From a virus: DNA of 64,000 bases. A program made the translations under genes and the position numbers. The stretch is taken from positions 1-64,000 of IMG/VR virus record IMGVR_UViG_3300028196_000007; one strand, given 5' to 3'. Of this stretch, positions 1,014-27,118 are shown piece after piece (position 1 is the stretch's first letter; every line of letters starts with the position of its first letter). A model generated the notes under the pieces. The model was not told the DNA's origin. It saw nothing but the letters and a program-made list of their open reading frames with translations, and made no database searches.

Positions 1014-2662
1014 TAGTATTGCTCCATTTTATCTATTTTAGCGCTGACCTTTTTAAATTCAGCTTTTCGTTTTTTATACATCTTTTCATATTTTTCAATT
1101 TCCCTACCATATCTATCAGCTACTTTACCACCTTCTGGTTCAGCTTCTTGTTCCATATTTTTATGTAGTTGCTTGATGGTTAATGTGATGTTTCTTAGAT
1201 CGTTTTCTATATCCATTGATTCGTCATACAATTTCCATTTTGCATCTAATGCTTTCCAAATAGATGAAGCTTCATTATATAAATCCTTCCCTTTGTGTTT
1301 ACCTTTATATGTAATTTCTGCAGCTTCAATAGGGTGAAAACTTCCAGGCATTGAGTCAAGTTTTATATATGCTACTCTACCTTTAACTTTATTGACTACA
1401 CCAATTTCTCCGTCTTTCATTTTGATAGCATCACCTTTTTTAACTCTAACTTCATTTACTGATTCCTTAGCCATCATGACTTTAAGTCTTAAAGCATCTA
1501 TAATCTTCATAGCTTCCTTGTAGTATTTCTTGTCCAATTTTAATGCTGTTAGTGTCACAGATAATCTATTCATCTGAAAACCTTTGATTCCAGCTCGTTC
1601 CAATGCGCCTTTAAGCTGTAAAGGTTTAAAGTTTGCTTTGGTTTGTATACCAATCATACTTTCAGTTAATTTGCCTTCAATAATAAAATCATCAACAGAT
1701 TCATAATAAGGTCTTTTTTCAAATTTATTTAGTTTTTTGACATCGCCTTTAATGTTTCCATACACCTGGCCGAGGTCAGCTCCCCATTTCTTAAAATCTG
1801 CATATTTTTGTATATTTCCTTTTTTAGTTAAGGTAATGTCTACTTTCTTATTATTCTTATCTATTGCTGTAAATATAGGCTGTTTACCAATCAATTTTAT
1901 AAATTTAGCGTTTTTCATTCCCTGTTTAAGATTTTTATCAACTATCTTTGCAAGTTTATTATCTTCGTTTAATTTACCTTCTTTCAATCTACTGATTGTT
2001 TTCTTAGCATTTTTTATAAATGTCTTCATATGTTTATCAGCTGATTTAATATACATGCGATATTCTTTATCATCTTCAACATCATTTACACCAGGAACAC
2101 CTGCATCTTGTACAAGTTCAAGTGCTGCATATAGTGGGTCAACTACTTCATTATATTCATCATCTGCTAATCTGTCAAGCTCCTCTGCATAATCATACAA
2201 CTTATCTTCACCATCTTTAACAGATAGTCTTAGACCTTTTTTCAAGAAAAGTTTTAGCTTAAATTGTGCAGCTTTCTCTTCTTTACTAATTTCAGTTAAT
2301 TTATCGTATTCTTCTGAAACTATTTCTTTTATGCCTTCAAGTGAAAGCTCTACGTCTCTGTCTAATTGAGCAATTAAACTGTTTGCTTCAGACTCTGCAG
2401 CTTTCTTCTTTTTTGTGAGGTCGCCAGCAATCTTAGTGTGTTTTGCAATTGCGTTTTCATCGCCACTTGACTTTGCTGATTTATATTTTTCAAGGTTGGT
2501 TATCATCAACTTTGAAATTTCAGCTACCTTTGTAAATGCCTTTGAAACTTTTGCTGGTGTGACTTTCGATTCATCTAAGTCGTGTAATATTTTTCGTTTT
2601 TGTTCTTCTGTTAAATGTGATAGCTCCTCGCGAACTATTTTCTGAATATGAATTTTACCCAT
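1013..2662 (-). CDS. Putative modular internal head polyprotein
   Basis: N-terminal KIVREE; repeated EGKLNE/EGKLTE/KESVNE linkers; GATATTTATA motif upstream. Confidence 0.5.
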   Translation of the reverse strand: MGKIHIQKIVREELSHLTEEQKRKILHDLDESKVTPAKVSKAFTKVAEISKLMITNLEKYKSAKSSGDENAIAKHTKIAGDLTKKKKAAESEANSLIAQLDRDVELSLEGIKEIVSEEYDKLTEISKEEKAAQFKLKLFLKKGLRLSVKDGEDKLYDYAEELDRLADDEYNEVVDPLYAALELVQDAGVPGVNDVEDDKEYRMYIKSADKHMKTFIKNAKKTISRLKEGKLNEDNKLAKIVDKNLKQGMKNAKFIKLIGKQPIFTAIDKNNKKVDITLTKKGNIQKYADFKKWGADLGQVYGNIKGDVKKLNKFEKRPYYESVDDFIIEGKLTESMIGIQTKANFKPLQLKGALERAGIKGFQMNRLSVTLTALKLDKKYYKEAMKIIDALRLKVMMAKESVNEVRVKKGDAIKMKDGEIGVVNKVKGRVAYIKLDSMPGSFHPIEAAEITYKGKHKGKDLYNEASSIWKALDAKWKLYDESMDIENDLRNITLTIKQLHKNMEQEAEPEGGKVADRYGREIEKYEKMYKKRKAEFKKVSAKIDKMEQY

Positions 2663-2700
2663 AAGGAGCTTCTCCTATTTAATTAGTTGTTCTATTATGA

Positions 2701-2710
2701 TATAAATATC
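2701..2710 (-). promoter_or_regulatory. Putative late promoter GATATTTATA (class B)
   Basis: TATAAATA on + strand recurring at 3188, 13793, 29126, 32077, 39497, 49406, 50545, 51154, 53455, 56347, 57060, 59838, 62751, each upstream of a minus-strand gene. Confidence 0.7.
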
Positions 2711-2713
2711 AAA

Positions 2714-2902
2714 CTATTTTATTAAAATGTCATCATTTTCGACCCAATATCGCCTTCCTGATTGTTCAACAGCTATGTTTTTAGAAGTCTTACATGTGCA
2801 CACTTTATCTCGTACCAAAACCGTAGAGCCTTTATAAAGCATACCAGATGGTGTCTGTATATCCTTTACGACTGTTGCCTTTTTGCCTATTATAACTTTC
2901 AT
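2714..2902 (-). CDS. Small hypothetical protein (beta-rich)
   Basis: 62 aa ORF tiling with neighbours. Confidence 0.55.
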   Translation of the reverse strand: MKVIIGKKATVVKDIQTPSGMLYKGSTVLVRDKVCTCKTSKNIAVEQSGRRYWVENDDILIK

Positions 2903-3157
2903 TTATTTTCTTCTGAATTTGTCGAACTTATATCCTTCACCCATCAATTCTTGAGCACTGATTATTGCCTGCTCATGGGACTTAAAAGGACCACCTACTT
3001 TATTTTTTGAGTGATATACAAACACTTCAACTTTTCCTGGAATTGTTTGTATATCTCCATTCTGTAGCTTTCTACTTCTAGGCATTTCGATTTTTTGTCT
3101 TATATCAAAATAACCTACTTTGCATATATAACTTCCATATTTTTCTTTTTTACCCAA
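2903..3157 (-). CDS. Hypothetical protein
   Basis: 84 aa ORF, TTG start, class B motif at 3188. Confidence 0.55.
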   Translation of the reverse strand: MGKKEKYGSYICKVGYFDIRQKIEMPRSRKLQNGDIQTIPGKVEVFVYHSKNKVGGPFKSHEQAIISAQELMGEGYKFDKFRRK

Positions 3158-3200
3158 AATATCTATCTTCCTTGTTTTTAGTTCGTATATAAATATATAT

Positions 3201-3335
3201 TTATTTGATTTTTACAGCTTTTTTCAATAGTCGTTCAAGTTCTTTTCTAAGACCCTCGACAACCCAGCCGTCCTGTCTGTCTCTTGCTGCTAGTTCTTGC
3301 TTTAGATACTTGATTCTATTTTCTAAATCTTTCAT
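3201..3335 (-). CDS. Small coiled-coil hypothetical protein (44 aa, absent from ORF track)
   Basis: MKDLENRIKYLKQELAARDRQDGWVVEGLRKELERLLKKAVKIK; start overlaps the upstream stop (TAATG). Confidence 0.55.
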   Translation of the reverse strand: MKDLENRIKYLKQELAARDRQDGWVVEGLRKELERLLKKAVKIK

Positions 3336-3580
3336 TAGTTTACTCTTACTTTAAGTTTTTTTATTTCAGTTAAAAATTCTTCCACTGTCAATGTCTTTCC
3401 TTTTTCGGTTTTTATTTTTATATCTGGTAATACCTCAGGTGTTTTGTCCACAATCGACATTAAAACTTTTAATCCAGAACCTGCCCAGAATACTCCAAAT
3501 CCTGTATTTTCACCTAAAAGATTAGAATCGAAATAAACTTCTTTCTCTGTATCACCTGGCATCATTATAAAATATGTCAT
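3335..3580 (-). CDS. Hypothetical protein
   Basis: 81 aa ORF, translationally coupled. Confidence 0.6.
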   Translation of the reverse strand: MTYFIMMPGDTEKEVYFDSNLLGENTGFGVFWAGSGLKVLMSIVDKTPEVLPDIKIKTEKGKTLTVEEFLTEIKKLKVRVN

Positions 3581-4299
3581 TTTTTATACTCCATAATTAA
3601 ATCCAGTGCTTTACTTTCAAACTGTTCCATAAGTAATTCTACATTAGGTATTACACAGTGACCTCCTATTCCGTCTTCTGGTGGATATAAATTAGGTCTT
3701 ACAACGTTCTGCATATCAAGCCCCATATAACCTATATTATATGAGAGCGTCCATTTGTTAATGACATCAAAATCTATACCATGTTTATCGCACATCTTTT
3801 TCATTTCACCATGCCAAGCTATACACAAGCCATAGTATGTTGTACTTGTTAACTTTGCTAACTCTGTAGCATCTGAGTTTTCAACAGGATAAAATGTTAT
3901 TTTTAAATCTTCATAATGCTCCTTTGCCAAAGCTAAATCAACTGGATTGTTATATCCTATAAACTTAACAAATTTTTCTATGCCTTCTTTTAGATTAGGA
4001 TGTATACCTCTTACAGGTGAATGTACACAAGGTCGAGATATTTCTTTTGTAGTACCAACAGGTACAGTTGAATGTATTATTGTTAATTTTGGTAAATACA
4101 GGTCGATATAACTATTGACTGTACTTATAAAGTTTTCGCCATAAGGCAGACATATATCTAAAATATCTATGTCTCCGTGTATTGTATTGAAGTTCAAGTC
4201 TCTAATCATAGGTACATGGCCTCTTTCTTGGTATACCTTTGCTAATGAGGAACCTATCTCACCAAAACCTATTATTGCTACCTTTGTTTTATATTCCAT
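3577..4299 (-). CDS. Nucleotide-sugar dehydrogenase (UDP-Glc/GDP-Man/UDP-ManNAc DH family, lacking C-terminal domain)
   Basis: GFGEIG Rossmann motif, HSTVPVGTT, SPVR, ELAKL, GIGGHC catalytic Cys. Confidence 0.8.
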   Translation of the reverse strand: MEYKTKVAIIGFGEIGSSLAKVYQERGHVPMIRDLNFNTIHGDIDILDICLPYGENFISTVNSYIDLYLPKLTIIHSTVPVGTTKEISRPCVHSPVRGIHPNLKEGIEKFVKFIGYNNPVDLALAKEHYEDLKITFYPVENSDATELAKLTSTTYYGLCIAWHGEMKKMCDKHGIDFDVINKWTLSYNIGYMGLDMQNVVRPNLYPPEDGIGGHCVIPNVELLMEQFESKALDLIMEYKK

Positions 4300-4338
4300 T
4301 TAATGTCTCCGTTGTTGAATATCCTTTTGTCCAGATTA

Positions 4339-5082
4339 TCATGTCGTAGTTACACCTCTTTCTTGTACAACTTTACTTGCGCATGAGTTTGCAAAGTCAA
4401 TAGCTTCTTCAATTATATTACCAGAATCTATATATTTGTAAACCAAACCTGCCATGAATGTATCTCCTGCACCTGATACATCTGATACCTTAACTTTATT
4501 TTTTACTTTAAAAATATTGTTTTTATACAATGCACCTTCTGAACCATCTGTTACTATAATATTATCATAAGTATAATCTTTGTTGTTATTCCACTCAGGA
4601 TTATTTATTTTAATAAAATCTATATTTTTACACCAATCACCTAATTTCTTCTTTGTATCTAAAAACGTAGGACACTTTGCTGTTTTACCTATATGAGCTA
4701 TATCATGAATTGTAAGAAAACCTTTATTATAGTCTGATATTACTATTGCATCATAACCTAAATCAAAATCTGAGTCTATACATTTTTGCCATTCTTTATT
4801 AAAGTCAATCGGCATGCAGGTGTCGTTTTCATCTAATCTCATAATCATCTGGCCAGATTTATCATCTACATATCTGGTCTTTTTAATAAAATCATCATTA
4901 GTTATCAAATCAACTTCTGCACCTAATGATTCTAAATTTGCAACTACATTTCCTGCCATTCCAGGATTTTCTGTTTTATTAACAGGATTAAGTACTGGTA
5001 CTGGCGCTTCAGGACAGAGTCTGCTTATATCGCAATAAACAAATTTATCAATACAACTATCACCTATAACTAAAACTCTCAT
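4339..5082 (-). CDS. Heptose-7-phosphate kinase (HldE kinase domain/HldA, PfkB family)
   Basis: VIGDxxxD, PEAPVPV, GMAGNV, ISDYNKG, DVSGAGDT. Confidence 0.88.
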   Translation of the reverse strand: MRVLVIGDSCIDKFVYCDISRLCPEAPVPVLNPVNKTENPGMAGNVVANLESLGAEVDLITNDDFIKKTRYVDDKSGQMIMRLDENDTCMPIDFNKEWQKCIDSDFDLGYDAIVISDYNKGFLTIHDIAHIGKTAKCPTFLDTKKKLGDWCKNIDFIKINNPEWNNNKDYTYDNIIVTDGSEGALYKNNIFKVKNKVKVSDVSGAGDTFMAGLVYKYIDSGNIIEEAIDFANSCASKVVQERGVTTT

Positions 5083-6237: not shown

Positions 6238-7020
6238 TTATGAATTAAGTAAATAATTTCGGTACTTTTTTGTTCCTAACTGCACATTGTTTTTTGGTTC
6301 CCAGCCTGGCATAAACTTTTCTCTATCAGCTTGTGTAAAGTATTGGTACCATCCAGGTATCTTATCTGGTGTGTGGTATTCATAATCTACACCTATGCCT
6401 CCGACAAGACTTTCAAATGTTTCTGCATTTCCTGAGCCCACATCGAACAAGCCTCTTTCAAGAGTTGCAGCGTGCATATTAGCATCTATTATGTCTTCAA
6501 TATATACAAAGTCTCTTTTTATATCACCTGGGAATAATTTGAACTCTCCTGCTTTCCAAGCTTGATATGCAACTGATGCCATTTTGCCTTTGTGTTCTTC
6601 ACCTGGCCCATATACGTTAAAATACCTTAACGCAACAAATCTTTCACATGCTTTCAATCCATAGTCTTCTGCAAGTAGTTTTGACCAACCATAAATATTG
6701 TTAGGTATACCATCGCCATCGCCATAATTTGCAGCTGAACTTGAATATACAACCTTGACATTATATTTTCTTGCCAAATCAAATATTCTTTTACTCAATG
6801 TGTAATTATAGTAAAGCATTTCATTGGCATCCTGTAATGTTGTATCAGATATTGCACCTACATGAAATATCACGTCGCATTGTTTTATTATAGATTCTAG
6901 ATTATACTCTTCAAAGTTTCCATCTCTTTCTAGACAATAAGCATAGTGCCCTAACTGTTTTAATTTTTTTAATAAATTAGAACCTACAAATCCTTTATGT
7001 CCTGTTAGTAATACTTTCAT
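6238..7020 (-). CDS. hldD: ADP-L-glycero-D-manno-heptose 6-epimerase
   Basis: GxxGFVG, GAISDTT, YSSSAAxYG, YGWSK, LRYFNVYGPGEEHKGKMAS, RDFVY. Confidence 0.85.
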   Translation of the reverse strand: MKVLLTGHKGFVGSNLLKKLKQLGHYAYCLERDGNFEEYNLESIIKQCDVIFHVGAISDTTLQDANEMLYYNYTLSKRIFDLARKYNVKVVYSSSAANYGDGDGIPNNIYGWSKLLAEDYGLKACERFVALRYFNVYGPGEEHKGKMASVAYQAWKAGEFKLFPGDIKRDFVYIEDIIDANMHAATLERGLFDVGSGNAETFESLVGGIGVDYEYHTPDKIPGWYQYFTQADREKFMPGWEPKNNVQLGTKKYRNYLLNS

Positions 7021-7784
7021 TATATACTCTCCAAATCATATACAACATTTTCATTTACGCTGTGTAAGGGTTTTACTCTTTCCCAAATATCTCTACCTCT
7101 TCCAAAATATACAAAATCTACATCTTTATCTATTGCATGACACGCGTGATAAAAAACCGAGTCAGGTATACACACAGCCTTTGCACGTCTCATTATCTCA
7201 AATTGAACATTTATATTATATTCCAAATAATCTATTTCAACTCCTATTTCAATAAAGTGCTTGATATTTTTATTTTTATCTAGCCATTTTCTACCAAAAT
7301 ATATAGGCAAGTCTTTTGAAGGTACACCAGTGTTTGTCTGTATAAAACCAAAATCGTTGTAGCCTACAATATCTTTAATTATATTTTCTGCCTGTATTAC
7401 GTCTTCATGATTTGTGTGTATTTCTGTAAGTGGATTTTTCAAATCTATATTTAGATACTTTGAATTTAGCAATATCTTGCTTTCATTTATAGAGTGCATT
7501 GGCATACACATAAAATTATATCCGTTTTCTATTGCAAACTGTTTCCACTGTTTTTGTAGTGATTGAAAGCCAATATTAGAATTGTCAAAGTCATGCCAAG
7601 CATCTTTACAATAATATATTTTGTCCACGTCAGGATTATTATCAAAAAACTTTGCAGACTTAAACCTTTCAAGTGTAACTACTGATATATGATTACCTGT
7701 TTGTTTTTTATATTCTCTTAATGCAGGTGTAAGTAATACGCAATCACCTAAACCGTGGGGGTATAATATTAAATTCTTTTTCAT
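7020..7784 (-). CDS. GT9 heptosyltransferase-like protein
   Basis: GLGDxVLxTPALR, NNPxVD, DSxxxHxxxA. Confidence 0.75.
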   Translation of the reverse strand: MKKNLILYPHGLGDCVLLTPALREYKKQTGNHISVVTLERFKSAKFFDNNPDVDKIYYCKDAWHDFDNSNIGFQSLQKQWKQFAIENGYNFMCMPMHSINESKILLNSKYLNIDLKNPLTEIHTNHEDVIQAENIIKDIVGYNDFGFIQTNTGVPSKDLPIYFGRKWLDKNKNIKHFIEIGVEIDYLEYNINVQFEIMRRAKAVCIPDSVFYHACHAIDKDVDFVYFGRGRDIWERVKPLHSVNENVVYDLESI

Positions 7785-8359
7785 ATTTTATCTATAATTA
7801 TTAAATAGTCAGCCTGACCCATCTGAATATCTCGTTCTTTTGTCAGAATTTTCACTATTTTAGTTTTGTGATTTGTAAAGTTTCTGAATTCATTTATATC
7901 TGTATACTTGCCAGGAACTTCTGTATCATCCCACCAATTAGCGTGTCCCATAGGTGGTGGTGATGGTTCATCATAAGAATGTTTCCAGGGCACTGTTATT
8001 ATCAATCTTTTGTTTGTTAATAGCATTAAATTATCAAAAGCTTTTTTATATTCTACCAAATGTTCTAAAGTTTCAGAGCATATAACAACATCAGCCGATT
8101 TAATTGGAAATGTTGATAAGTCGAATATATCCGAATTGTAATAATCTATTATGTCTTTAAAACTCTCCATTTCTTTTATGAATTTTTTATTGTCGTCAAA
8201 TCCAAAATAATCTGTTGAATAAACCTTAAAGCCTAAATGATTTAGATGAGCATCAGGCTTGCAATGTCCTGAACCAACATTGAGTATTGTTTTAGGTTCT
8301 AATTCTATAGCCTCTTTTATTATTCGCTCGTGCCTAATATCTATTATTGGTAACTTCAT
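7781..8359 (-). CDS. Class I SAM-dependent methyltransferase
   Basis: LNVGSG, DVVICSETLEHL, ITVP. Confidence 0.85.
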   Translation of the reverse strand: MKLPIIDIRHERIIKEAIELEPKTILNVGSGHCKPDAHLNHLGFKVYSTDYFGFDDNKKFIKEMESFKDIIDYYNSDIFDLSTFPIKSADVVICSETLEHLVEYKKAFDNLMLLTNKRLIITVPWKHSYDEPSPPPMGHANWWDDTEVPGKYTDINEFRNFTNHKTKIVKILTKERDIQMGQADYLIIIDKI

Positions 8360-9152
8360 TTGCCCACTTCATTCTTGTTAATTTTTTTACATTTTTCATA
8401 CCGCTTTTAGATATTTTATTTCTTAAATCTTCATTATTAAGATAATAAATAATCTTTTCTTGCAAGTCTGAAATATCTTTATATACAACCAAGTCCTCTC
8501 CATCTACAAGGCCAGTTAATTCTCTACCATACCATTCGTCTGTCAGCAGAAACCCTCCTGCTGCAAGTATTTTATATACTCTATCGGATGCACAACTATC
8601 TGTACATATATTCAGATTTATCCTTGATTTTCCTACCTCTATTGAATGCTGCAAACCATAGGCTGATGAAATTATCTTAACGTCATTTAAGCGTCCTAAC
8701 ACAGTGCTTCTATTACCATACACATTACCAATAAATGAAATATCGTATTCTTTTTTTACATTTTGCACAAAATCAACAGATTCATCGTATCCTTCACAAA
8801 TATACCTGCCTAGCTTTGCTTTTTCAAGAGAACTCTTTTTGTCAAAAAATGCTATGTCGCTTAGCATTGCTTTTTCTGCCATTTCCATAGTAAATGTTGT
8901 TGCAGGGTCTGGAAACCAATATACAATTTTTTTATTATTGTGTTTTAGCTTGCCCATTGTATATTTACTTGTTCCATTTCCTTTAGCTATAAGTACAATA
9001 TCATACCCTGTTTTTTCTTGTAAAACAATATTGAAGTTGCTTATAGATCTGTATGGGAATTCTTCTACGTCATGCCCAAGATTTCTTAAACAATCTCTTT
9101 GAGAATTATTTGTTGAGCCTTCAGTAAAAACTCCTACAAATAATATTCTCAT
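8334..9152 (-). CDS. CgeB-family glycosyltransferase
   Basis: DISFIG, SRINLN, RVYKILAAGGFLLT, YYLNNEDLR. Confidence 0.8.
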   Translation of the reverse strand: MRILFVGVFTEGSTNNSQRDCLRNLGHDVEEFPYRSISNFNIVLQEKTGYDIVLIAKGNGTSKYTMGKLKHNNKKIVYWFPDPATTFTMEMAEKAMLSDIAFFDKKSSLEKAKLGRYICEGYDESVDFVQNVKKEYDISFIGNVYGNRSTVLGRLNDVKIISSAYGLQHSIEVGKSRINLNICTDSCASDRVYKILAAGGFLLTDEWYGRELTGLVDGEDLVVYKDISDLQEKIIYYLNNEDLRNKISKSGMKNVKKLTRMKWANEVTNNRY

Positions 9153-15381: not shown

Positions 15382-15633
15382 TTGGCTGGTCCTTAGGTAA
15401 AAATCCTTCGTTTATATGACCACAGTCTGTACACTTATATATCTGTAAAGGTATAAGAGTATCTTTTCCTGATGGTGACATTACAGCTGAAAGCTTTTTA
15501 AATAAAAATGCTGGTGCAAATGTTTGGCATTCACATTTTTCGCATAGCATGTCTTCTAAATCATTAGGATTTATATTTAGCTGTTGCTGGGCCTGCTGAC
15601 CTTGATTTGGATTTAAGTTTATTGTTTTTGACA

Positions 15634-15634
<1 letters not shown>
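15374..15634 (-). CDS. Small zinc-ribbon protein
   Basis: CEKC ... CTDCGH. Confidence 0.7.
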
Positions 15635-17540
<1,906 letters not shown>

Positions 17541-17551
<11 letters not shown>

Positions 17552-18266
17552 GTTTATCCTCTTTTTCTAATTCATACTCTGATTTTGTACACACAACGCC
17601 TGTCTGCTCTTTTACAAGTTCAGGTGTTGTACATGATTGATTAAAACTTGCAAACTCTGTGTGTGATTTCCATCTTCCACATCCAGCAAATAAACAGCCA
17701 AACGCGTTAGATAAATAATCTGCTTTAGCATATTCACATTTTTTTGTAATGTCACACATAGGTTTAAAACCTTCAGCCAAACCTATACCTGCTTCTATCA
17801 TCTTTTCTCTTAATAGCCAGTGTAAACCAACAATAAATTCTTCTTCACAAAATTGAAGTCTTCTTGTCATTTGACCTCGAAGCGAACCTATATTTTGCTC
17901 TACAACATAACTACATTCTCTTGACATAAGATTTAGTGCAGACATTTCTACTTGAGAAAACATGTTTACTTCACGCTCTTCTCTAATCTCCTCAAGCTGT
18001 TCCAATGTTTCTATAACCTCTTGTTTAAATTTAGGGTCTTTCTGCATTGTATCCCATACTTGTGTATATACAACATAGTTTGGTTTTTCGCTTACCTTAT
18101 AGTCTTTAAATTTAATTCCAACTCTAGCTCTTGAATGCTGATCGTATTGACATACTGGTGTTCCTGTTACTTTATATGTTATCATTTGAGAATCAGGATT
18201 CCACATTAGTATTTCAACGTCTAGACATTCGATGCCTTTTTTAATTTTAATATTACTCATTTTCAA
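17541..18266 (-). CDS. Divergent ThyX-fold protein B
   Basis: TYKVTG..CQYDQHSRAR (cf. TFxIxGVSR..HQxxRHR); NIGSLRGQMTRR; Cys-rich PMC..KC tail. Confidence 0.55.
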
Positions 18267-19068
18267 ATAACTTTTTATCAGATTCTTTCAAATCCTCATA
18301 TTTAATATTTTTAATAAACTCTAATACATTTTCTGTATCTTCTGATATCACTCTTAAGTATTCACCTATTAAAGGGAATTTTTCTGTAACTGATTCCACA
18401 ACCTTTTTATATAATTCATTTAATGCCCAGTCTTTATTGTCCATTAGATTGAAAGTGCCTGACGCATTAAAACCTCTCATGCTCACAAGTGAAAGTAGAT
18501 TCTGTCCAAAATGATATGAGTGCTGGTATGATTGTGGTAAAAATGACCTTGCAGACTGCCAAGAAGCTTGGTCTGTATCTAAAGCTTTTGAATAAAGAGC
18601 CTTAAGTCTCTCCATAACTTTTATCTCCTTCTCCTCTAAAGAAGAAAGAGTTACGATGTCTACATCTGATTTATTGTTATCACGGCAGCCTATACTCATA
18701 AAGCTAGTAAATGGTGTTTGTGTGTGATAGTCGAATAGCCATCTTGGTACACCTCTTACACGAAATATAAACTGTATCATTTCTCTTGCTTGAGGCAGTG
18801 TGTTGTGAGTCATTACAGCCTTTACAACTTCAAGCTTTCCTTCTGGTGAAGTTAATGGCCATTTTCTTTTAAATTCATTATCACCCCATGTCGATGTGCT
18901 AGTAACAAACATAGACTTATAAGGATTTGACATGTGGTCTTCTAATGTGACCTCAACCTCATCTGATAATATTTTGAATTCTGTTTTTAGTAGTGGCTGT
19001 TCCTCAGGTAATGTTCCCATTACAATTCTCAGGTTTTCTACCACGTCGTAACTTAATTTATCTTGCAT
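18253..19068 (-). CDS. Divergent ThyX-fold protein A
   Basis: H...E..QFIFRVRGVPRW, AxWQSARSFLPQS, GQNLLSL, FP; RHR motif absent. Confidence 0.65.
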   Translation of the reverse strand: MQDKLSYDVVENLRIVMGTLPEEQPLLKTEFKILSDEVEVTLEDHMSNPYKSMFVTSTSTWGDNEFKRKWPLTSPEGKLEVVKAVMTHNTLPQAREMIQFIFRVRGVPRWLFDYHTQTPFTSFMSIGCRDNNKSDVDIVTLSSLEEKEIKVMERLKALYSKALDTDQASWQSARSFLPQSYQHSYHFGQNLLSLVSMRGFNASGTFNLMDNKDWALNELYKKVVESVTEKFPLIGEYLRVISEDTENVLEFIKNIKYEDLKESDKKLFENE

Positions 19069-19123
19069 TTCTATAACCTTTTTATTTAATATAAATATAA
19101 CAAAACTTTCCGATATATTAAAA

Positions 19124-22100
19124 TTATATCAACTTTTTTATCGAAGAGTTTTTGCTTTTTGTGAAACCAAATTTGTTTTTTGATGAAGGTATTAAAACAA
19201 ACTCACCTTCGTTAAGACCTGATATATCTCTAGTATTAAATATGGTTATAAACAACTGTTTGACGTCATCTTCTAACACAATTTTATAAAATTCCCTACC
19301 TGTCTTTTTAGATTTTTTAATAATTATTTTGTTTATAATACCATATAGTTGGAACTGACCTTTATCCAAGTCATCAGGTATTTGCTTAGGACTTGTTAAC
19401 TGTGCAATAATATCAGGTGCGTGGTCGTAGAAAAACTCCTTATATTTTGCAAAAGGGTGTTCGTTAAAATAAAAATCAAAGTATTTCTTTTCCCATTCAA
19501 ACTTTTGTGTTTTGTCCCAGTCTTTTTCACCTGTAGTTTCCTGTAAGATTTCTTGAATTATTGCATCGATTGTCTGCGACTTCTTTTTGTTTCTACAGGC
19601 ATTTACTATTTCCTCTAACACTCTAGAGTTTTTAAGTATAGAGTTAAAATAACCTAGTCTACAAAGAGGTTCGTATGTACGCTTTGTAACTTTTTTACTA
19701 AGTATAAATTCTATAAGTTCTTTAATTGTATTGATATCACTTTTTTTGATAGAGTTTATAAGTGCAGCATCTTTATCTGGTATACCTTTTACAAGGTTTA
19801 ATCCAAATTTTATAGAATCATTTTCATAGTCTATTTCAAAACTATTACCTGTCTGTCCTATTTCGAAGTCATTAAACTTTATACCTTTACTTTTTATCTG
19901 TTTAACAAACCAGCTTAACTCTGCATTTGTTGAATGGTTAAGAAGCGAAGCGTAATACTCTTTTGGAAAATGTACCTTTTGCCACATTGATATATAAGCG
20001 TTCATAGCATATGCTAGCGAGTGAGACTTATTAAATGAGTATTCTGAATATTTACCTAGTACGTCTAGTAACTCATCTATATCTCTATCCTTCATGCCAT
20101 TTGCTTTTGCGCCTTTTTTGAATCTATCAAGCATATCATAGAAATTACCTTTCTTTTCTTGATTACCTTTATGTAGTAATTTAAGAATTTTTCTACCACC
20201 ATCTGCTTCAGCAAGTGTAAAGCCACCAATTTTTTGTAGAATAAACATAATCTGCTCTTGAAATATTGGAACACCAAATGATTCTCCTAATATATCCCAC
20301 AGCAGTGGTGATTTTTCGTCTAGCAAAAATTTTGCCTCTTCCGGATTTTGTCGGTTTTTGATATACTCGTCAATTCCTCCGGCCTGAATTATTGCAGGTC
20401 TAAACATGGCATTGATGGATGATAAGTCAACAATGTTTTTAGGTTTTATTGTCCTAATTAAATTTATCATATTATCAGAGCCAAATTGAAATATGTCTTT
20501 ACAGTTACCTGTTTCGAACTCATCATAAACCATTTTGTCATCGAAGTCAGATTTTAGAATTCGTTGTTCTAAACCTTTTTCTCCATGCTTGCTTTCTATA
20601 AGTTTGAATGTATCATTTATTACTGATGCTGCTTTAAGACCAAGAATATCTAGCTTACAATAACCAAGTTCACTAACCTCTCGTTCATCACCACCTTCTT
20701 GTACACCAGTTACTGTTTCGCCTTTTAATCTTAACAAAGGTATTTCTGAACAGTCTAAATCTTTATTACTTACTAATATACCTGAAGCGTGTCTACCTGT
20801 TTGTCTTACCATACCTACCATTTTAGGTGCAACTTTCAAGAACAGTTCTTTGTTGTCCTTTATAAACGCCATTAAGTCTTTTTCACCTTTTTTCTGTGCA
20901 ATGCTAAAAGCGTTTTTCATTTCTATATCTATAGGTGAGTTTGGGTCATCGCTAAAATATCCTGTAAGTTTGTTTGATAATACAAAGTCAAGTTCATGTA
21001 TTCTACATAAATCCTTTACAGTTGTTTTAGCACCAAATTTTCCAAAGTTTGCAATGTGACATACACGTTCAGTACCAAACTTTTCTTTAAGATAACCTTC
21101 GCACAACTTTTGTGTATCGGAATCAATGTCCAAATCCACATCGGCAGGGTCAATTCTAGCAGGGTTTAAGAACCTTTCAAAAATTAAATTATGTCTTATC
21201 GGATCGATTTTTGTAATATCTAGTACAAATAGTACAAGTGAACCACCAGCAGAACCTCTACCAGCACCAGTTGCACCACCTACTTTGTATACAAAATTAT
21301 TTAATAAGTCATCTAGAATTAAAAAATAATCGATAAATCCTTTGTCTTTTATAATGTCTAATTCGTATTTAAGTCTGTCTGTATATCGTTTGTCGTTTTC
21401 AGGTAGTAAGCCATTACCTATTTTTTCAACCCATTTAACTTTTAGCTTATCCATAAATTCAGTTTCACTTTGCTTTTTGTCTTCATGATACTTAGGGAAG
21501 TTGTCAGGATATTTTGGCAATTCAATATTTACCTTGTCGTTTATTTCAAAAGTAGAATCTATTGCAAGTTCAAGAAAGTTTTTATCCATTCCATATTTTT
21601 CTGCTTCAGCATATATTTCATCTATCTCTTTAATATAAAGTGAGTGTACTGTATAAAACCAATCATCTGGAGTGTAAGACTGTACAGTTTCTCTTTGACG
21701 TATTACATATAAAAGATATTGAATGTACCAATCATCTTTATTTGCATAGTGATAATCAAGAGAGAACACAGGCTTTATTCCTGTTTTCTGATATACTTTA
21801 TGATAGAAATTATTACATTGCATTTGTATATCTAGATTGTTTAGCTGTATCTCCAAATAAAAATCATCACCAAACTTATCTCTATATTTTTTTATAAGTT
21901 CTAATGCTGCAACTTCATTTCCTGCAAGTATATATTGATTCCATTTTGATTGTAAACAACCTGTTGTAATTATATTATTCTCATCTAGTGTATTGTATAC
22001 TTTATCCATACTTGAAAGAGGCTTTCTATAAAACGTATCGAAACTTGCATTAGATACTTTTAATATATTCTTTACACCTTCATAGTTTTTTGAATAAACT

Positions 22101-22561: not shown

Positions 22562-23053
22562 TTAACAATAAGTCCACGGCTTATTTCCATTCTCCATAAA
22601 CCTATGAAGAGATGTTATCTTAACATATATTTTTCCAGGCCTATATTTTGGCCAACAAGCTATAAGTGCAGACATAACCATCATATAAGTCTGGTTGTCA
22701 TAGCAGAAATTGTTATCGAAGTTTTGACTTCTTACAAAAACATGCAGGTCTATCTTTCCATCTCTTGCTATTGCCTGTATTGTAGAAAGACATGCTGCTA
22801 AATCTGGATTATCTTGATAAGCTTTATGAAGTACACACTGTCTAGACTCTATGCCTTTTGTTTCGCATATCTGAAGTATGTCTTCTATAATCTCGTTTCT
22901 TTCAATCTCATCGCCTTCTAAAGCAGGAGGTATTTTTTTATCCATAAAGTCTGAATCGACCTCTACCTCGTAATTAAAATTGTATACTTCTCTATACGTG
23001 CCACTGTCTTGTTTGCTTAACAGGCTTTCTATTTTCTGTGCTATTTTCTTCAT
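22562..23053 (-). CDS. Minimal thymidylate-synthase-fold enzyme, dCMP-modifying type
   Basis: LAACLSTIQ (catalytic Cys), L...RSQN.......D, SLH; Asp at the Asn177-equivalent position. Confidence 0.72.
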   Translation of the reverse strand: MKKIAQKIESLLSKQDSGTYREVYNFNYEVEVDSDFMDKKIPPALEGDEIERNEIIEDILQICETKGIESRQCVLHKAYQDNPDLAACLSTIQAIARDGKIDLHVFVRSQNFDNNFCYDNQTYMMVMSALIACWPKYRPGKIYVKITSLHRFMENGNKPWTYC

Positions 23054-24056
23054 AATGCTTTGCTATCGATAAATATGTTTTTGTTATACCTTCTGCTGAA
23101 TTCATTGCATTTGCAGACAGATTGTAATGTTGATATAATTTATAAAAGTTTTCTGATTTCCCATTGTGTCTTGCAAGATAGTCACCTTCTGGAATTAAAT
23201 TTATGTGTTCTGTTAAATCGTTGCATTGTGTAATTTCTTGAATAAGGTATAAGTAATTTTCAAATGGCATTGGCTTATCTTTACTTATAATAAAGTCTTT
23301 ACCCCAACCATTATCCATCATAAGTATAGTCAAAAACATATCAGCGAAATATTCATATCTCATATAGTCTTTTTCTATTGAAGGGTCAAGTAATACATCA
23401 AGTTTGCCATTTTTGTTAAGTGGAGACAATGTATAAGGTATGTTGTTCTTACTACAATATACTTTTTCTGTTATCTTTCTTATCATAGACGAGTTATCGA
23501 ATGGTGCGTCACCATAAATAAACACAGGCTTTATTACCATCATTTTTTCGAAGTCCATAGCCTGTTTTACAGCAAGCTCACCTGAATACTTTGAAAGACC
23601 ATATAGTGTTTTTGGGTCTATAGGTGCTGTTTCATTAAACTCTCCATTGTTCTTCATGTATTCATCAGGATTGAATACGGCTGTAGTAGAAAAGTATATC
23701 ATTTTACAACCAACACTGCTTGCTATGTTAATAAGATTTTGAGTACTTATAATATTTGAGTTAACAGCTTCGTATGAAAAGTCATCGCACTTATCTGTAT
23801 TCACATAAGCAGCAGTGTGAATTATAATATCGTCTTCAGTAAGTCTTGATGCTACCTTGTCTAGTACATCAGTATCTGTAACATCTACCTCTTTTGATTT
23901 CACAAGCTTTCCGTTTAAATAACTAAAGTCATTTGTATATTCTGCTAAATCAGAATTGTCCATTACCTCAAATCTTTCTGTCCCGCTTTCTTCCAACGCT
24001 TTAATTATAGAGGTTGCTAGCATTCCACTTTCACCTGTTATAAATAATTTTCTCAT
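22992..24056 (-). CDS. RmlD-like NAD(P)-dependent NDP-sugar reductase/epimerase (extended SDR)
   Basis: ITGxxGML, IHTAAYVNTDKC, YFST..VF, YGLSK..GE. Confidence 0.82.
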   Translation of the reverse strand: MRKLFITGESGMLATSIIKALEESGTERFEVMDNSDLAEYTNDFSYLNGKLVKSKEVDVTDTDVLDKVASRLTEDDIIIHTAAYVNTDKCDDFSYEAVNSNIISTQNLINIASSVGCKMIYFSTTAVFNPDEYMKNNGEFNETAPIDPKTLYGLSKYSGELAVKQAMDFEKMMVIKPVFIYGDAPFDNSSMIRKITEKVYCSKNNIPYTLSPLNKNGKLDVLLDPSIEKDYMRYEYFADMFLTILMMDNGWGKDFIISKDKPMPFENYLYLIQEITQCNDLTEHINLIPEGDYLARHNGKSENFYKLYQHYNLSANAMNSAEGITKTYLSIAKHYEENSTENRKPVKQTRQWHV

Positions 24057-24475
24057 AATTTCTCCTGTATTTTTTCTGCTGATTGTGACACTGTATCTTT
24101 TGTCGTATCTATTCTTTTTATATCCATTCCATAGAAATTTTCTGCAATTTCAAGTACATGGTAAAACACTCTTCTGTGTTCTTTCCAATCTCTTATATCC
24201 AAATCTTTTTCATCGTGCTTTACAAATCTTTCTTTAACAAGCTCAAAAGAACAGTCGATAAAATAAAACTCTTCACCTCTACTGTAAGCTTCTTTCCACA
24301 ATGAAAACCACTTGTCTTCATCTATGTCTCTATTATATAATCTAGAGTACACTATTTGTGATAAAAAAGACCTGACATAAACTAGCGCGTTTCCTTCTGC
24401 GTTGCTTACAACCTGTCTTCTTATAGAATCTTTTCCTGTTTTATCAGGTCCATCTATGTGTATTATTTTTGCCAT
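24053..24475 (-). CDS. dNMP/thymidylate kinase-like protein
   Basis: IDGPDKTGKD P-loop, RSFLSQIVY, IDT. Confidence 0.78.
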   Translation of the reverse strand: MAKIIHIDGPDKTGKDSIRRQVVSNAEGNALVYVRSFLSQIVYSRLYNRDIDEDKWFSLWKEAYSRGEEFYFIDCSFELVKERFVKHDEKDLDIRDWKEHRRVFYHVLEIAENFYGMDIKRIDTTKDTVSQSAEKIQEKL

Positions 24476-24843
24476 ATTTTCATTTTAGTTGATATATAAG
24501 TTAGCTGTTCTGTTTCTACCTTTCCAAATATAAGTACTTTGTTATATACAAGTATATCGAATTCATTTTCTCTATGTAAACCAAATACATCATCTGCAAC
24601 TTTAGTAGGTTCGAAATCTCTGTTTAAATCTTGTAGAGGTATGCAGCATAAGAATTCTCGTTCGTCATCTTTTTCTAATGAATATCCCCAATTGTCTCCT
24701 ATAAAAGACTTTGTTTTTATTCTATCCTCTACCAAAGATTCCCAAAACTTAATTTCTTGTTTTGCAGCTGGATTCTCGTAGAAGCAATAAGTTAACTTAA
24801 CTTCCTGTACTACCAAATCCTCCATCTCCTCTACTTGTATCAC
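24463..24843 (-). CDS. Hypothetical protein (start uncertain)
   Basis: ORF filling the gap between dUTPase and kinase. Confidence 0.55.
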   Translation of the reverse strand: MIQVEEMEDLVVQEVKLTYCFYENPAAKQEIKFWESLVEDRIKTKSFIGDNWGYSLEKDDEREFLCCIPLQDLNRDFEPTKVADDVFGLHRENEFDILVYNKVLIFGKVETEQLTYISTKMKIWQK

Positions 24844-25258
24844 TTAACTCATCAACTTCTTTAAATTCAAAATTAGGCACAGGCATGATAATAATCTGAC
24901 CTACTCTATCACCTGGTGAATATCTTGAAATGTCTGTTGAACAACCTGATTTTTTAAATCTTAACTTTACAGGGCCTCTGTAACCTGAGTCAACTACTCC
25001 GACACAGTTTGCTAGCATTAGATCTGTTTTTGATACAGAGCTTCGCGGGAATAGATAACCTACATATCCTTCAGGTATTTCCATAGCCAAGCCTGTATCG
25101 TATTCGATATACTTAACTTCTTTTGATGTATAACCTTCTTTATCGTCACTATATTTTATCTTCATTGACACTGATGTTAAATCCATACCTGCATCGCCTT
25201 GCTTTGCATATTTTGGTATTACCGCTGTTGGGTCTAATTTTTTTATATTAATCTTCAT
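24797..25258 (-). CDS. dut: Trimeric dUTPase
   Basis: AGMDL, PRSS, GVVDSGYRG, GDRVGQ, RGDGGFGSTG. Confidence 0.95.
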   Translation of the reverse strand: MKINIKKLDPTAVIPKYAKQGDAGMDLTSVSMKIKYSDDKEGYTSKEVKYIEYDTGLAMEIPEGYVGYLFPRSSVSKTDLMLANCVGVVDSGYRGPVKLRFKKSGCSTDISRYSPGDRVGQIIIMPVPNFEFKEVDELSDTSRGDGGFGSTGS

Positions 25259-26186
25259 TGTGAATAACCTCTATTATATTTCCGTTAATTGTTTTAATTC
25301 CTTCGTTTAGTTTTCTATCAAGTGTTTTCTGTGAGTATATACCTAAGTTCTTTCTTAGGAACACTTTGAATCCACTGTCATGAAGCTTGTTTGCATTTTG
25401 TATATCATCATCTATACAGAAAGCTACTTTATCTGTATCAAAGTTATTGATAATATATTTTTCTTTTTCTTCATCAAATACAATAGCATCATAACAAATA
25501 TTGTTATCAGCCAACCACTTTATTGTATCTGAATATATTCTAAAGTATTTCTTGTATGGTCTTGCTGTAAGCAATACTACATTATATTCTTCACATGTCT
25601 TCTTCATAAAAGATTCTACACCTGACAATACTTTAAGTTTAGCTTTAATACCGCAAGTTCTATATTCAGACTTAATTTTGTATTGCTCTTTTTTGTCAAC
25701 CTGACTTTTGAATTCAGCAAGAGATTTATACCCTGCCCATTCTAAAAAACCACCTGGCCAATCGGCAAGTACTCCATCGATATCAATAAAAGCTATTTGC
25801 TTATCTGAAGCCTTAATTCTATCCATTACTTCTTCTTGATTGAACTTTGCTTCAACAACTTTTGATTTATCTATAAATTTTTCATACAAATCATCTACAC
25901 CAAAACCATTTAATTGTATAATACCAAATAAGTATTTTAGTACATCAACACATTCTTCTAATACATTGTCGTTAATATCTTCTGTATTTTTAGAAGTGTG
26001 CATTTTCCAATCTATCTCATCGAGTACTTCATATACCTCTTTAGACAGCGCTAGAACGTACTCCTTGTTCCATTTAATCTTAAGTTCTTTATCCTCCATC
26101 ACCTCATTTAACGATAAACCTTGTTTTTCGAAAAATTTATTAGTAAATTCTTTTTGTATCTTAAATACTTCTTTTAATCTATCCAT
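25248..26186 (-). CDS. Fusion: all-alpha NTP pyrophosphatase (dCTPase/dUTPase, MazG-like) plus HAD 5'(3')-deoxyribonucleotidase
   Basis: ExxEVLDEIDWK..EECVD; IDIDGVLAD, LTAR, IDDD. Confidence 0.82.
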   Translation of the reverse strand: MDRLKEVFKIQKEFTNKFFEKQGLSLNEVMEDKELKIKWNKEYVLALSKEVYEVLDEIDWKMHTSKNTEDINDNVLEECVDVLKYLFGIIQLNGFGVDDLYEKFIDKSKVVEAKFNQEEVMDRIKASDKQIAFIDIDGVLADWPGGFLEWAGYKSLAEFKSQVDKKEQYKIKSEYRTCGIKAKLKVLSGVESFMKKTCEEYNVVLLTARPYKKYFRIYSDTIKWLADNNICYDAIVFDEEKEKYIINNFDTDKVAFCIDDDIQNANKLHDSGFKVFLRKNLGIYSQKTLDRKLNEGIKTINGNIIEVIHNED

Positions 26187-27118
26187 TCTTTCACCCTGTC
26201 TAATACTTCGTTAGCTTTTATTTTATGATTCCATTCTGCAAATCTACCTAACAAAGTGATTCCTTTTATTTCATTGATTTTTTGGCTTTTCTCTATCTGT
26301 ATAGGTAAATCCTCAAACTTCATTTCTATTTTATTTCCTTCGATGCTGTCACCTTCTATAGGCTTAACAGATTCGTATACAATATAATCTTTAAAATATG
26401 TACATCTTGTCCAGTCTGCATGTATTGAATATATGTAGTCATATGTTAATGAAGGATGCTTACTATCCATAGCCTCAGGTACTGTAAATCCATAACTACA
26501 TTTATAAAAAGATTTTTTGCTTGTTGAAAAATCAAATCCTAGTTTTGTACATTCGTTATCAACATCTGCGCATATCTTTCTTAATATGTTTATATTTAAA
26601 GTATTTATTATATTACCATATTCTAATGTTGAGCCATTTGCTAACTCTAATTGGCTCAAGGTTGTGTCAATTGATTTTACAGATGTTTTTATTAACTGAC
26701 CTCTTTCTTCTATAATACTAAGTAGTCTCGTAAATATTTCTTTATAGCTATCTTCACCCAACTCATCAACTTCGCAATGCATGATTTCTGTCTTACCTTC
26801 TGACAAATGACTGCCTTCGCCTTCATTGCCTCTTGTTCTCATGCTGTATTTCTTTTTAAAGTTTTCGTCAGGTGAATCATACACACCTTCTTTTTCATGA
26901 TAACCTATAACACACTTTTCAATTTTTAATTCTAAATCATTTGCAACTTCCTTTACAAACCATTTCATGTTTGGATTTGACTGCAAAAGTCTAGGGCCTG
27001 GTATAAACGGCATGTTTAATTGACCTAAAGGTTTTTCGTCTATAACCTTATAGTCTTTATTAAAATATGCAGCTATCAAACCTGCTGGTCCTGCTCCTAA
27101 TATGTAATTTTGTTTCAT
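26174..27118 (-). CDS. FAD-dependent oxidoreductase, UDP-galactopyranose-mutase/PPO-like
   Basis: ILGAGPAGL, GPR, C-terminal LLGRFAEW. Confidence 0.72.
   Translation of the reverse strand: MKQNYILGAGPAGLIAAYFNKDYKVIDEKPLGQLNMPFIPGPRLLQSNPNMKWFVKEVANDLELKIEKCVIGYHEKEGVYDSPDENFKKKYSMRTRGNEGEGSHLSEGKTEIMHCEVDELGEDSYKEIFTRLLSIIEERGQLIKTSVKSIDTTLSQLELANGSTLEYGNIINTLNINILRKICADVDNECTKLGFDFSTSKKSFYKCSYGFTVPEAMDSKHPSLTYDYIYSIHADWTRCTYFKDYIVYESVKPIEGDSIEGNKIEMKFEDLPIQIEKSQKINEIKGITLLGRFAEWNHKIKANEVLDRVKEWID

Follow-up and report, generated by a model that had tools for sequence, protein, structure and literature searches.

A candidate ThyX-type enzyme with its active site divided between the products of two genes in an uncultured phage lineage

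Background

The closest described relatives of the genes considered here are the canonical flavin-dependent thymidylate synthases, ThyX (EC 2.1.1.148), homotetrameric enzymes of the Thy1 fold family (PF02511) that are represented by the proteins of Mycobacterium tuberculosis (2AF6 and 3GWC), Thermotoga maritima and PBCV-1. Here we describe two overlapping genes, designated A and B, on the minus strand of a 64,000-nucleotide stretch of viral DNA (hereafter the window), which is part of the 86,139-bp IMG/VR virus record IMGVR_UViG_3300028196_000007 (about 50% complete according to CheckV). Each gene encodes a ThyX-like paralogue, and, as judged from their sequences, the two most likely make up a natural ThyX-type enzyme that is encoded by two genes and has its active site split between them.

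A review of the M. tuberculosis and Helicobacter pylori ThyX structures describes three subunits as building each active site. The subunit called 'A' supplies the RHR motif (Arg95-His96-Arg97), which reaches flavin adenine dinucleotide (FAD) and deoxyuridine monophosphate (dUMP), together with Arg199; subunit 'C' supplies Arg87, Ser105, Arg107 and the lid residue Tyr108; and subunit 'B' supplies Ser71 and Arg190 to the FAD phosphates. These role letters are kept in quotation marks throughout and are distinct from the names of the phage genes. In the PBCV-1 structure paper, Gln75 and Arg182 belong to one monomer, with Ser88/Gln89 contributed by the other, and for the T. maritima enzyme Arg174 is described as activating dUMP, with Ser88, Arg90 and Tyr91 aiding methylene transfer.

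Departures from the homotetrameric plan have been noted elsewhere. A 2009 paper mentions a fused duplicated ThyX of Chloroflexi as uncharacterised. Fused tandem forms in Chloroflexi and other bacteria resemble the pair described here in that duplication has yielded two unlike halves, but they are cellular and carry two Thy1 domains on one polypeptide, whereas A and B are separate, overlapping phage genes with their own stop and start codons and an independent origin, nested in a viral single-chain clade. PolB, a ThyX paralogue of polyoxin biosynthesis that is described as a C5 methylase of uridine monophosphate (UMP) and dUMP, offers a precedent for a ThyX paralogue with an altered substrate, although it is a single Streptomyces protein. 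The archaeal tRNA-splicing endonuclease, reported as an alpha4 homotetramer or an (alpha-beta)2 heterotetramer, provides an analogy of evolutionary route only (duplication and divided roles), its fold and chemistry being unrelated. No description of a heteromeric ThyX was found in the searchable literature, as judged mainly from titles and with subscription journals mostly uncovered.

Results and discussion

Relationship of the two proteins to ThyX

A sequence-only reading of the window had noted two overlapping genes that each align to ThyX by eye, that lack the RHRxxxxxxxS signature and whose complementary losses suggest a heteromer. Both open reading frames (ORFs) are present as described on the minus strand, which holds nearly all long ORFs of the window (GC content ~33%), and every string quoted in that reading was found (FIFRVRGVPRWLFDYHTQTPFTSFMSIGCRD and ARSFLP in A; HSRAR, NIGSLRGQMTRR and PMCDITKKC... 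in B). The alignment to ThyX is upheld by the Thy1 score of A, by profile comparisons and by a predicted-structure match for a homologue of B. Protein A scores 30.8 bits with Pfam Thy1, above the gathering score of 24.8 (E 3e-7; A residues 42-200, profile 2-164 of 191). Protein B has no match in Pfam, PHROG or NCBIfam and joins the family through longer, single-chain relatives and through profile-profile alignment with hhalign. Protein searches returned 118 relatives of A from 814 candidates and 122 relatives of B from 361 candidates, most of them metagenomic proteins of 230-290 aa. The most distant relatives are longer proteins of 317-360 aa that carry PF02511 (16 among the 120 listed in the B search and 3 in the A search); the 16 found with B are 319-356 aa long and share 37-44% identity across ~80% of its length.

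When family profiles built without the single-chain rows were compared with one built from ten canonical-like viral ThyX proteins, all of which carry RHR...SQSQR, NxR and ARxxLP, the A-only profile matched at 98.4% probability (E 9.4e-15, 199 columns) and the B-only profile at 96.6% (E 6.7e-10, 136 columns). The ESM Atlas model of P0126, a protein 85% identical to B (predicted local distance difference test score 0.66), matches a 336-aa Thy1 cluster with a template-modelling score of 0.75 over 215 residues, 92% of the 153 members of that cluster carrying Thy1, and by language-model features the score of B against Thy1-bearing clusters is 0.94. A ThyX-like fold is thus predicted for the B homologue, and B is tied to ThyX by its single-chain relatives, by the profile comparison and by this structure match. 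Compared directly, A and B show no significant similarity (BLASTP E 0.07; hhalign E 0.2), the best hhalign segment being the homologous strand that precedes the RHR site. In sequence terms, A and B are connected only through the single-chain family.

The signature RHRx7-8S(x)R is complete in neither chain, as the sequence-only reading had stated. Protein A has YHTQTPF...GCRD, with no Arg-x-Arg, and protein B has QHSRARVG...KVSE, with no Arg of the S-x-R element. Neither has by itself the full residue set of a normal flavin-dependent thymidylate synthase, and neither matches the NCBIfam thyX equivalog (TIGR02170). A phmmer search of A and B against the sequences of the PDB gave chance-level matches only.

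Complementary retention of conserved residues

To compare the families, columns of the single-chain reference P0222 were tabulated over 19 single-chain, 109 A-family and 103 B-family rows aligned with MAFFT, a residue being counted as kept at 90% or more. Among 63 columns invariant in the single-chain proteins, 26 are kept by A only, 26 by B only, one by both and ten by neither, compared with 11.6 both and 20.6 neither expected under independent retention (Fisher p 1.6e-8). Within the shared core only (P0222 positions 89-240; sorted by hand from the full column lists), 13 columns are kept by A only, 9 by B only, one by both and three by neither.

The A family keeps the N-terminal module of the single-chain proteins (MGTLP, NPYK, TWG, KW and TLPQA.E), Arg105 of G.PR (109/109) and the C-terminal DK.LF, and it is without FCEEEF and the whole Cys tail. 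Its RHR site is degenerate. The first Arg is most commonly replaced by Gln (84 of 109), Thr (15) or His (5) and the second by Pro (60), Gln (18) or Lys (18), neither column holds the single-chain Arg at 90% or above, and the preceding Gln has become Tyr, Arg or His. The B family lacks ~55 residues of the helical module; its G-x-R-D-N loop contains no Arg, and its ARxxLP column is gapped or variable, again with no Arg. It retains both Arg residues and the Gln of the RHR site (Q, R, A, R and G of QHSRARVG are each present in 103/103 rows), the second Arg of RRLQFCEEEF (103/103, followed by C in 99, E in 103, E in 103 and E in 95 of 103 rows) and Trp221. Its tail contains C171, C177, C196 and C212 in 103/103 rows and C191 in 97/103; its counterpart in the alignment with canonical-like viral ThyX is a C-x5-C...CG tail, and it probably forms a metal site.

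The retained sets can be placed on the known active site. The alignment of the single-chain profile to M. tuberculosis ThyX is weak yet in register: the Arg of G.PR falls on Arg87, R-A-R on Arg95-His96-Arg97, G-S-R-D on Ser105-Gln106-Arg107-Tyr108, the Arg of ARxxLP on Arg172 and the late Arg on Arg199, and the residue numbers agree with those of the structural review. Phage B keeps the role-'A' residues (103/103 each), and phage A keeps the counterparts of Arg87 and Arg107 (109/109 each); the Ser105 column reads Gly, with Cys or Ser next to it. Counterparts of all the Arg residues that contact dUMP in ThyX are therefore present and may meet in one site, but they are divided between the chains, with the equivalents of Arg87 and Arg107 in A and those of Arg95 and Arg199 in B. 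By this alignment, phage B holds exactly the role-'A' set and phage A the role-'C' set of the ThyX site.

We consider it reasonably likely (a probability of roughly 0.6) that A and B form an obligate heteromeric thymidylate-synthase-like enzyme, most likely an A2B2 assembly on the ThyX tetramer plan. In this proposal, the ancestor would be a viral ThyX-like gene of the single-chain type, encoding a Thy1 domain and a tail rich in Cys, that duplicated in tandem; the two copies would then have lost complementary parts, leaving B to fill only the RHR/late-Arg role and A only the early-Arg/S-x-R role. The flavin-phosphate role would probably belong to A, because B has deleted the helical segment with the Ser71 counterpart. 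The four to five invariant Cys residues of B would probably bind a structural metal that ties the late-Arg helix to the tail. Such an enzyme would resemble canonical ThyX in fold family, in having the dUMP-binding Arg residues once A and B are combined and, presumably, in sharing active sites between subunits. It would differ from ThyX in having two different subunits instead of four identical ones, in the ~70-residue Cys-rich tail of B and in forming, within a D2 tetramer, two complete composite sites instead of four. The complex, its stoichiometry, cofactor, metal and product are what we infer from these patterns.

Evolution, linkage and selection

A quick IQ-TREE phylogeny, with branch support from the Shimodaira-Hasegawa-like approximate likelihood-ratio test (SH-aLRT) only, was reconstructed from 96 rows: 19 A, 19 B, 46 single-chain and, as outgroup, 12 canonical-like sequences. 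For A and for B, 18 relatives were taken from 108 and 102, respectively, so as to cover the range of identity. A and B each form one clade (SH-aLRT 100) on a long stem (0.99 and 0.86 changes per column), and both clades nest in the same single-chain subclade (60 rows, support 99), with no support for a sister relation between A and B. This topology fits a single tandem duplication followed by fast complementary divergence.

Two scans of IMG/VR yielded 70 loci on 54 distinct contigs. B lies directly downstream of A in 37/37 A-carrying contigs and abuts or overlaps it in 36/37; several of these contigs are near-copies (for example L017/L018/L019, L033/L034/L064 and L058/L059/L062), so that independent lineages number fewer than 37. 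Three further contigs begin inside or just before B. In the sole separated pair, on contig L041, a 198-aa ORF with a GIY-YIG-like N-terminus, as read by eye, stands between A and B (6831-7427), and an ORF with HAE...PCxxC motifs of the dCMP-deaminase type (dCMP, deoxycytidine monophosphate), also read by eye, follows B (8112-8573). No second copy was found within the fetched locus of the 14 single-chain contigs. Over 29 loci, pairwise dN/dS has a median of 0.158 for A, taken from the 112 of 406 pairs with usable dS, and of 0.169 for B, from 151 of 406 pairs; both genes are under purifying selection.

These observations bear on two other explanations. The first is that a frameshift or an assembly error has cut a single ThyX gene in two, or that both ORFs are decaying pseudogenes, as might be supposed from the fact that the ORFs overlap and that neither alone resembles a complete ThyX. 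A and B, however, align to the same core of the single-chain parent, each with its own first strand and core, and not to consecutive parts of it; the two-gene form recurs in the 37 contigs, from many samples and down to ~47% identity; dN/dS is ~0.16 for both; and 15 public sequencing runs contain at least half of the sampled words of positions 15600-19200. The shared-core alignment, the recurrence and the dN/dS values already refute artefact or decay, to which we give virtually no credence. The labels of the 15 runs are marine, seawater, estuary or marine plankton metagenomes, one of them probably the source sample.

The second explanation is that only one of the two proteins is enzymatic, the other being a pseudoenzyme that serves as scaffold or regulator, or that each forms its own homo-oligomer. 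The similarity between A and B is no longer detectable, the stem of each clade is long, and a 55-residue helical segment is gone from B, as is the whole tail from A, all of which would suit such a divergence. On the other side, neither protein has the full substrate-binding set, so neither homo-oligomer could form the canonical site; the residues kept by each are invariant in more than 100 relatives and are exactly the set missing from the other; and the genes are never apart where a contig permits the check (37/37). We regard this explanation as improbable. Homology, paralogy, complementary conservation, strict linkage and purifying selection are established for the pair, and the heteromer suggested in the sequence-only reading gains support from the 26/26/1 division of columns, the split of subunit roles, the 37/37 linkage and the purifying selection. 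Paralogues that are always co-encoded and retain complementary residues are as would be expected of a heteromer derived from a homomer by duplication, in which A and B would presumably associate physically.

The single-chain family and the wider viral ThyX branch

The direct parents of the pair appear to be the single-chain viral proteins (P0222-P0238, P0115, P0117 and P0118; 317-360 aa), a metagenomic and uncharacterised family that has the same motifs and differs from the pair in carrying all of them on one gene, presumably as a homotetramer. All seven of the single-chain relatives scanned pass the Thy1 cut-off (27.5-74.5 bits, mostly over the whole profile, 1-190) and carry ~90 further Cys-rich residues beyond it. 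The alignments of A and of B to this family are full-length, at 36-42% identity to A and 37-44% to B (P0222-P0238). The family has gained FCEEEF and extra Cys residues.

In an exhaustive profile search, 1112 proteins were recovered at E<=1e-3, 251 at 1e-10 and 68 at 1e-30. No fused A-B form was found among the longer proteins, which is weak evidence against one; the six long proteins (480-717 aa) with two-stretch matches that were read among the 150 best matches are intein-bearing single chains and not fusions. The inteins in these six (P0243, P0245, P0246, P0268, P0272 and P0278) interrupt the best-conserved motifs, the insertion points being the Cys of FCEEE and sites next to or ahead of the G-x-R-D-N loop, and another intein-interrupted single-chain form occupies 5932-7920 of contig L052. 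Inteins in conserved motifs, as in essential replication enzymes, speak for the proposed enzyme.

More distant matches are ordinary-looking ThyX proteins of 220-260 aa that share the C..R.C and C-x5-C...CG pattern, and intermediates with R-A/T-R and G/S-x-R-D-N forms stand between the single-chain family and canonical ThyX. Ten canonical-looking viral ThyX proteins (P0367, P0368, P0369, P0372, P0375, P0348, P0343, P0361, P0350 and P0308) have four invariant Cys residues in the pattern R-x-C, then C-x5-C-x5-8-C. From this pattern, the four Cys residues suggest a metal site in the wider viral branch. Solved ThyX structures are not known to contain such a site, although no literature search was aimed at it. 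Because the wider branch already has a Cys motif, the tail of B would be an elaboration of an older feature.

In tblastn searches against cultured phages, A, B and a 163-aa mini ThyA-like protein encoded elsewhere in the window had no match, and the best matches of a single-chain protein were ordinary phage ThyX at 23-30% identity. The DnaE-type polymerase of the window had no relative of at least 60% identity in cultured phages, the 12 listed being at 27-29%. Since A, B and the mini ThyA-like protein lack cultured-phage matches and the polymerase has only these remote relatives, the phage lineage is taken to be uncultured.

Gene layout and neighbourhood

Coordinates of the pair, its motifs and the neighbouring genes are collected in Table 1. 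For B, the ATG start is more likely than the TTG start, and the ESM Atlas record of B begins at the same residue as the ATG. The overlap of this ATG with the stop codon of A is a layout typical of translational coupling, which would match the expression of A and B. The gene for the DnaE-type polymerase ends 55 nt upstream of A. In a sub-lineage at 72% identity (L018, L019, L021 and L022, ~1480-5012), the polymerase upstream of A consists of two adjacent ORFs that match the window DnaE at only 25-29% identity.

Table 1. Positions in the window of the ThyX-like pair, its motifs and neighbouring genes.
Feature	Position	Strand	Remarks
Gene A	18253-19068	-	271 aa; ThyX-like paralogue; N-terminal helical module and 'dUMP-side' residues retained
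Gene B	17541-18260	-	239 aa from ATG 18260; ThyX-like paralogue
Gene B, alternative start	17541-18266	-	241 aa from TTG 18266
A stop/B start overlap ATGAGTAA	18253-18260	-	B ATG overlaps A stop codon
A Arg109 (GVPR)	18742-18744	-	Arg in 109/109 A rows; Ile/Val/Leu in 103/103 B rows; aligned with M. tuberculosis Arg87
A YHTQTPF	18709-18729	-	Degenerate Q..RHR site; both Arg lost
A GCRDNNK	18670-18690	-	Counterpart of S-Q-R-Y loop (M. tuberculosis Ser105-Tyr108); G, R, D and N each 109/109
A SWQSAR(SFLP)	18547-18564	-	Counterpart of ARxxLP (M. tuberculosis Arg172); W, Q and R each 109/109
B QHSRARVG	18117-18140	-	Counterpart of Q..RHR (M. tuberculosis Arg95-His96-Arg97; PBCV-1 Gln75); His replaced by Ala
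B RRLQFCEEEF	17835-17864	-	Late Arg (M. tuberculosis Arg199, T. maritima Arg174), then family-specific acidic/Cys motif
B Cys-rich tail	17631-17756	-	C-x5-C-x13-C-x4-C-x15-C; absent from A
groES	17258-17551	-	11-nt overlap with end of B; context only
groEL	15634-17256	-	Downstream of groES; context only
Nucleotide cassette near the pair	22562-27118	-	Pfam, PHROG and NCBIfam matches; context only
Mini ThyA-like protein	22562-23053	-	163 aa; Pfam 15.8 bits (below cut-off); phrog_160 E 1e-5
orf126	24463-24843	-	No significant Pfam, PHROG or NCBIfam match
orf314	26174-27118	-	No significant Pfam, PHROG or NCBIfam match

The sequence-only reading had also proposed co-transcription of the pair with groES/groEL. 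This is plausible in the window, where groES overlaps the end of B and no terminator-like site was found on the minus strand from A to groEL, but it does not extend to the family: groES/groEL follow B in 26 of 40 B-carrying contigs, all closer relatives, and are absent from the other 14. The adjacency is lineage-specific, and a functional link of the pair to groES/groEL was rejected on the same count. A promoter and terminator scan gave counts no higher than shuffled sequence (38 against 35.1 and 4 against 3.1). Contigs from RNA libraries bridge the A/B junction (X11 18037-18381 and X17 17924-18286) and the B/groES junction (X11 16984-17729 and X16 17504-17744) with 0-1 differences; they come from three metatranscriptome libraries in which DNA carry-over is possible and carry no strand or level information, and thus only hint at transcription across both junctions. 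The very high summed RNA-library depth at conserved groEL segments stems from the groEL of other organisms.

A cassette of nucleotide-related genes lies near the pair. It comprises orf314, a MazG-type NTP pyrophosphatase with a fused HAD-like domain, a dUTPase, orf126, a Tmk-like kinase, an RmlD-like short-chain dehydrogenase/reductase (SDR) and the mini ThyA-like protein, and in the window lineage a class II ribonucleotide reductase (RNR) is found upstream in addition to the dUTPase within the cassette. Relatives of these genes recur near A-B in related loci and partly near single-chain genes, although membership varies by locus and in some the order differs or the polymerase gene intervenes. 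Relatives of the MazG-like gene and orf314 adjoin single-chain genes too, and relatives of orf314 and orf126 recur beside the MazG-like gene in both A/B and single-chain loci. In the fetched stretches of L018, L019, L021 and L022, blastp found no match for the mini ThyA or the RmlD-like gene.

The mini ThyA-like protein is ~100 aa shorter than ThyA and keeps the catalytic-Cys region. It reads RSQN...YDN, with RSQN where Escherichia coli ThyA reads RSCD. It has Asn at the position of E. coli Asp169 and Asp at that of Asn177, and its relatives are close to A-B in many related loci. A 2026 paper (PMC13326640) takes Asp169-to-Asn as the mark of flavin mononucleotide (FMN)-dependent 5-hydroxy-dCMP synthases, enzymes whose product subsequently becomes glycosylated in the DNA. 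The pair thus adjoins a probable cytosine-modification cassette.

Thymidylate synthesis or a changed chemistry

In T4, td is the phage's own thymidylate synthase. The pair may be the equivalent in the present lineage or part of a new chemistry. The most likely reaction would be the flavin-dependent methylation of dUMP to deoxythymidine monophosphate (dTMP) for phage DNA synthesis, running alongside the phage dUTPase, Tmk-like kinase and ribonucleotide reductase. A supply of dTMP fits the context, because dUTPase, the Tmk-like kinase and the class II RNR are nearby, and every dUMP-binding Arg, including the one that activates the uracil, is kept across the pair. The record that contains the window has no Thy1 or ThyA Pfam match besides the pair. 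Among three related genomes at least 90% complete, two likewise have no other Thy1/ThyA Pfam match (one of 145 kb with terminal repeats, 100% complete; one of 97 kb, 96% complete), so that the pair is their only thymidylate-synthase candidate.

Several points weigh against a heteromeric thymidylate synthase. Two block deletions supply much of the count of complementary columns, and the MAFFT alignment places a conserved basic residue of A (Arg in 52 and Lys in 49 of 109 rows) in the late-Arg column after a 3-residue gap, whereas without the gap it falls three residues earlier; the loss of the late Arg from A is to that extent not clear-cut. Against solved structures the single-chain profile reaches M. 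tuberculosis ThyX only at E 0.03, and single-chain P0222 scores 39.8 bits where the NCBIfam thyX equivalog cut-off is 87.9. Across the single-chain family, and hence in the pair, the His of RHR is Ala; the counterparts of lid Tyr108 and Arg190 are Asp and Leu; and H..S..EH is replaced by TLPQALE. With Gln at Ser71, the canonical FAD-contact set and lid residue are thus not retained (as read in the single-chain family and in whichever subunit keeps the segment). The pair is linked to the cassette that resembles a cytosine-modification pathway. The third related genome, a complete 391-kb relative, carries full-length ThyA beside A/B; this is a 391,061-bp record with terminal repeats (G002, locus L068), in which the ThyA homologue scores 267 bits in a 383-aa frame at 142494-143594. 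Finally, the heteromer and its geometry rest on sequence logic.

The sequence-only reading had offered, as an alternative, a repurposed flavoenzyme for a modified pyrimidine. Some of these points would suit a heteromer whose chemistry, like that of its single-chain parents, has been redirected, so that a flavin- and/or metal-dependent enzyme would act on dCMP, 5-hydroxy-dCMP or a sugar-linked form, or would supply reduced flavin to the mini ThyA-like enzyme, and would make no thymidylate. The family-wide loss of FAD and lid residues, the gain of the invariant acidic FCEEEF motif and extra Cys, the score under the equivalog cut-off, and the relatives of orf314 and of the MazG-like, Tmk-like, RmlD-like SDR and mini ThyA-like genes close to A-B would all be consistent with such repurposing, as would the Asn at the Asp169 position of the mini ThyA and the precedent of PolB. 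All ThyX dUMP-binding Arg residues, including the late one, are nevertheless kept across the pair; the dUTPase in the window and the dCMP-deaminase-like ORF after B in L041 are usual companions of a thymidylate synthase; no other candidate for that reaction is seen in two complete or near-complete relatives; a graded series leads to canonical RHR...SQR proteins with the same Cys pattern; and PMC13326640, on 5-hydroxycytosine, has no occurrence of ThyX. We therefore consider repurposing unlikely, though far from negligible. A more specific and similarly doubtful suggestion is that the pair and its single-chain parents represent a new ThyX-derived class, bearing Cys residues or a metal, that makes a modified pyrimidine for phage DNA. 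Such a class would work with the mini ThyA-like enzyme, the SDR and sugar enzymes, and the split would have halved the number of sites while freeing the copies to specialise.

Conclusions

ThyX is of interest as a drug target, and its active site is the textbook example of one built by three subunits. If A and B form the proposed heteromeric thymidylate-synthase-like enzyme, the sorting of residues onto two polypeptides would independently confirm the inter-subunit model of that site, and the pair would offer a convenient means of finding out which residues each subunit role requires. In addition, it would cleanly exemplify how a homomer becomes an obligate heteromer through duplication and complementary loss, in fast-evolving phage genomes. 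The pair would draw attention to an uncharacterised viral ThyX branch in which a Cys cluster is invariant, the flavin contacts are altered and inteins have hot spots. The phage lineage itself is common in seawater metagenomes, as the 15 public runs indicate.

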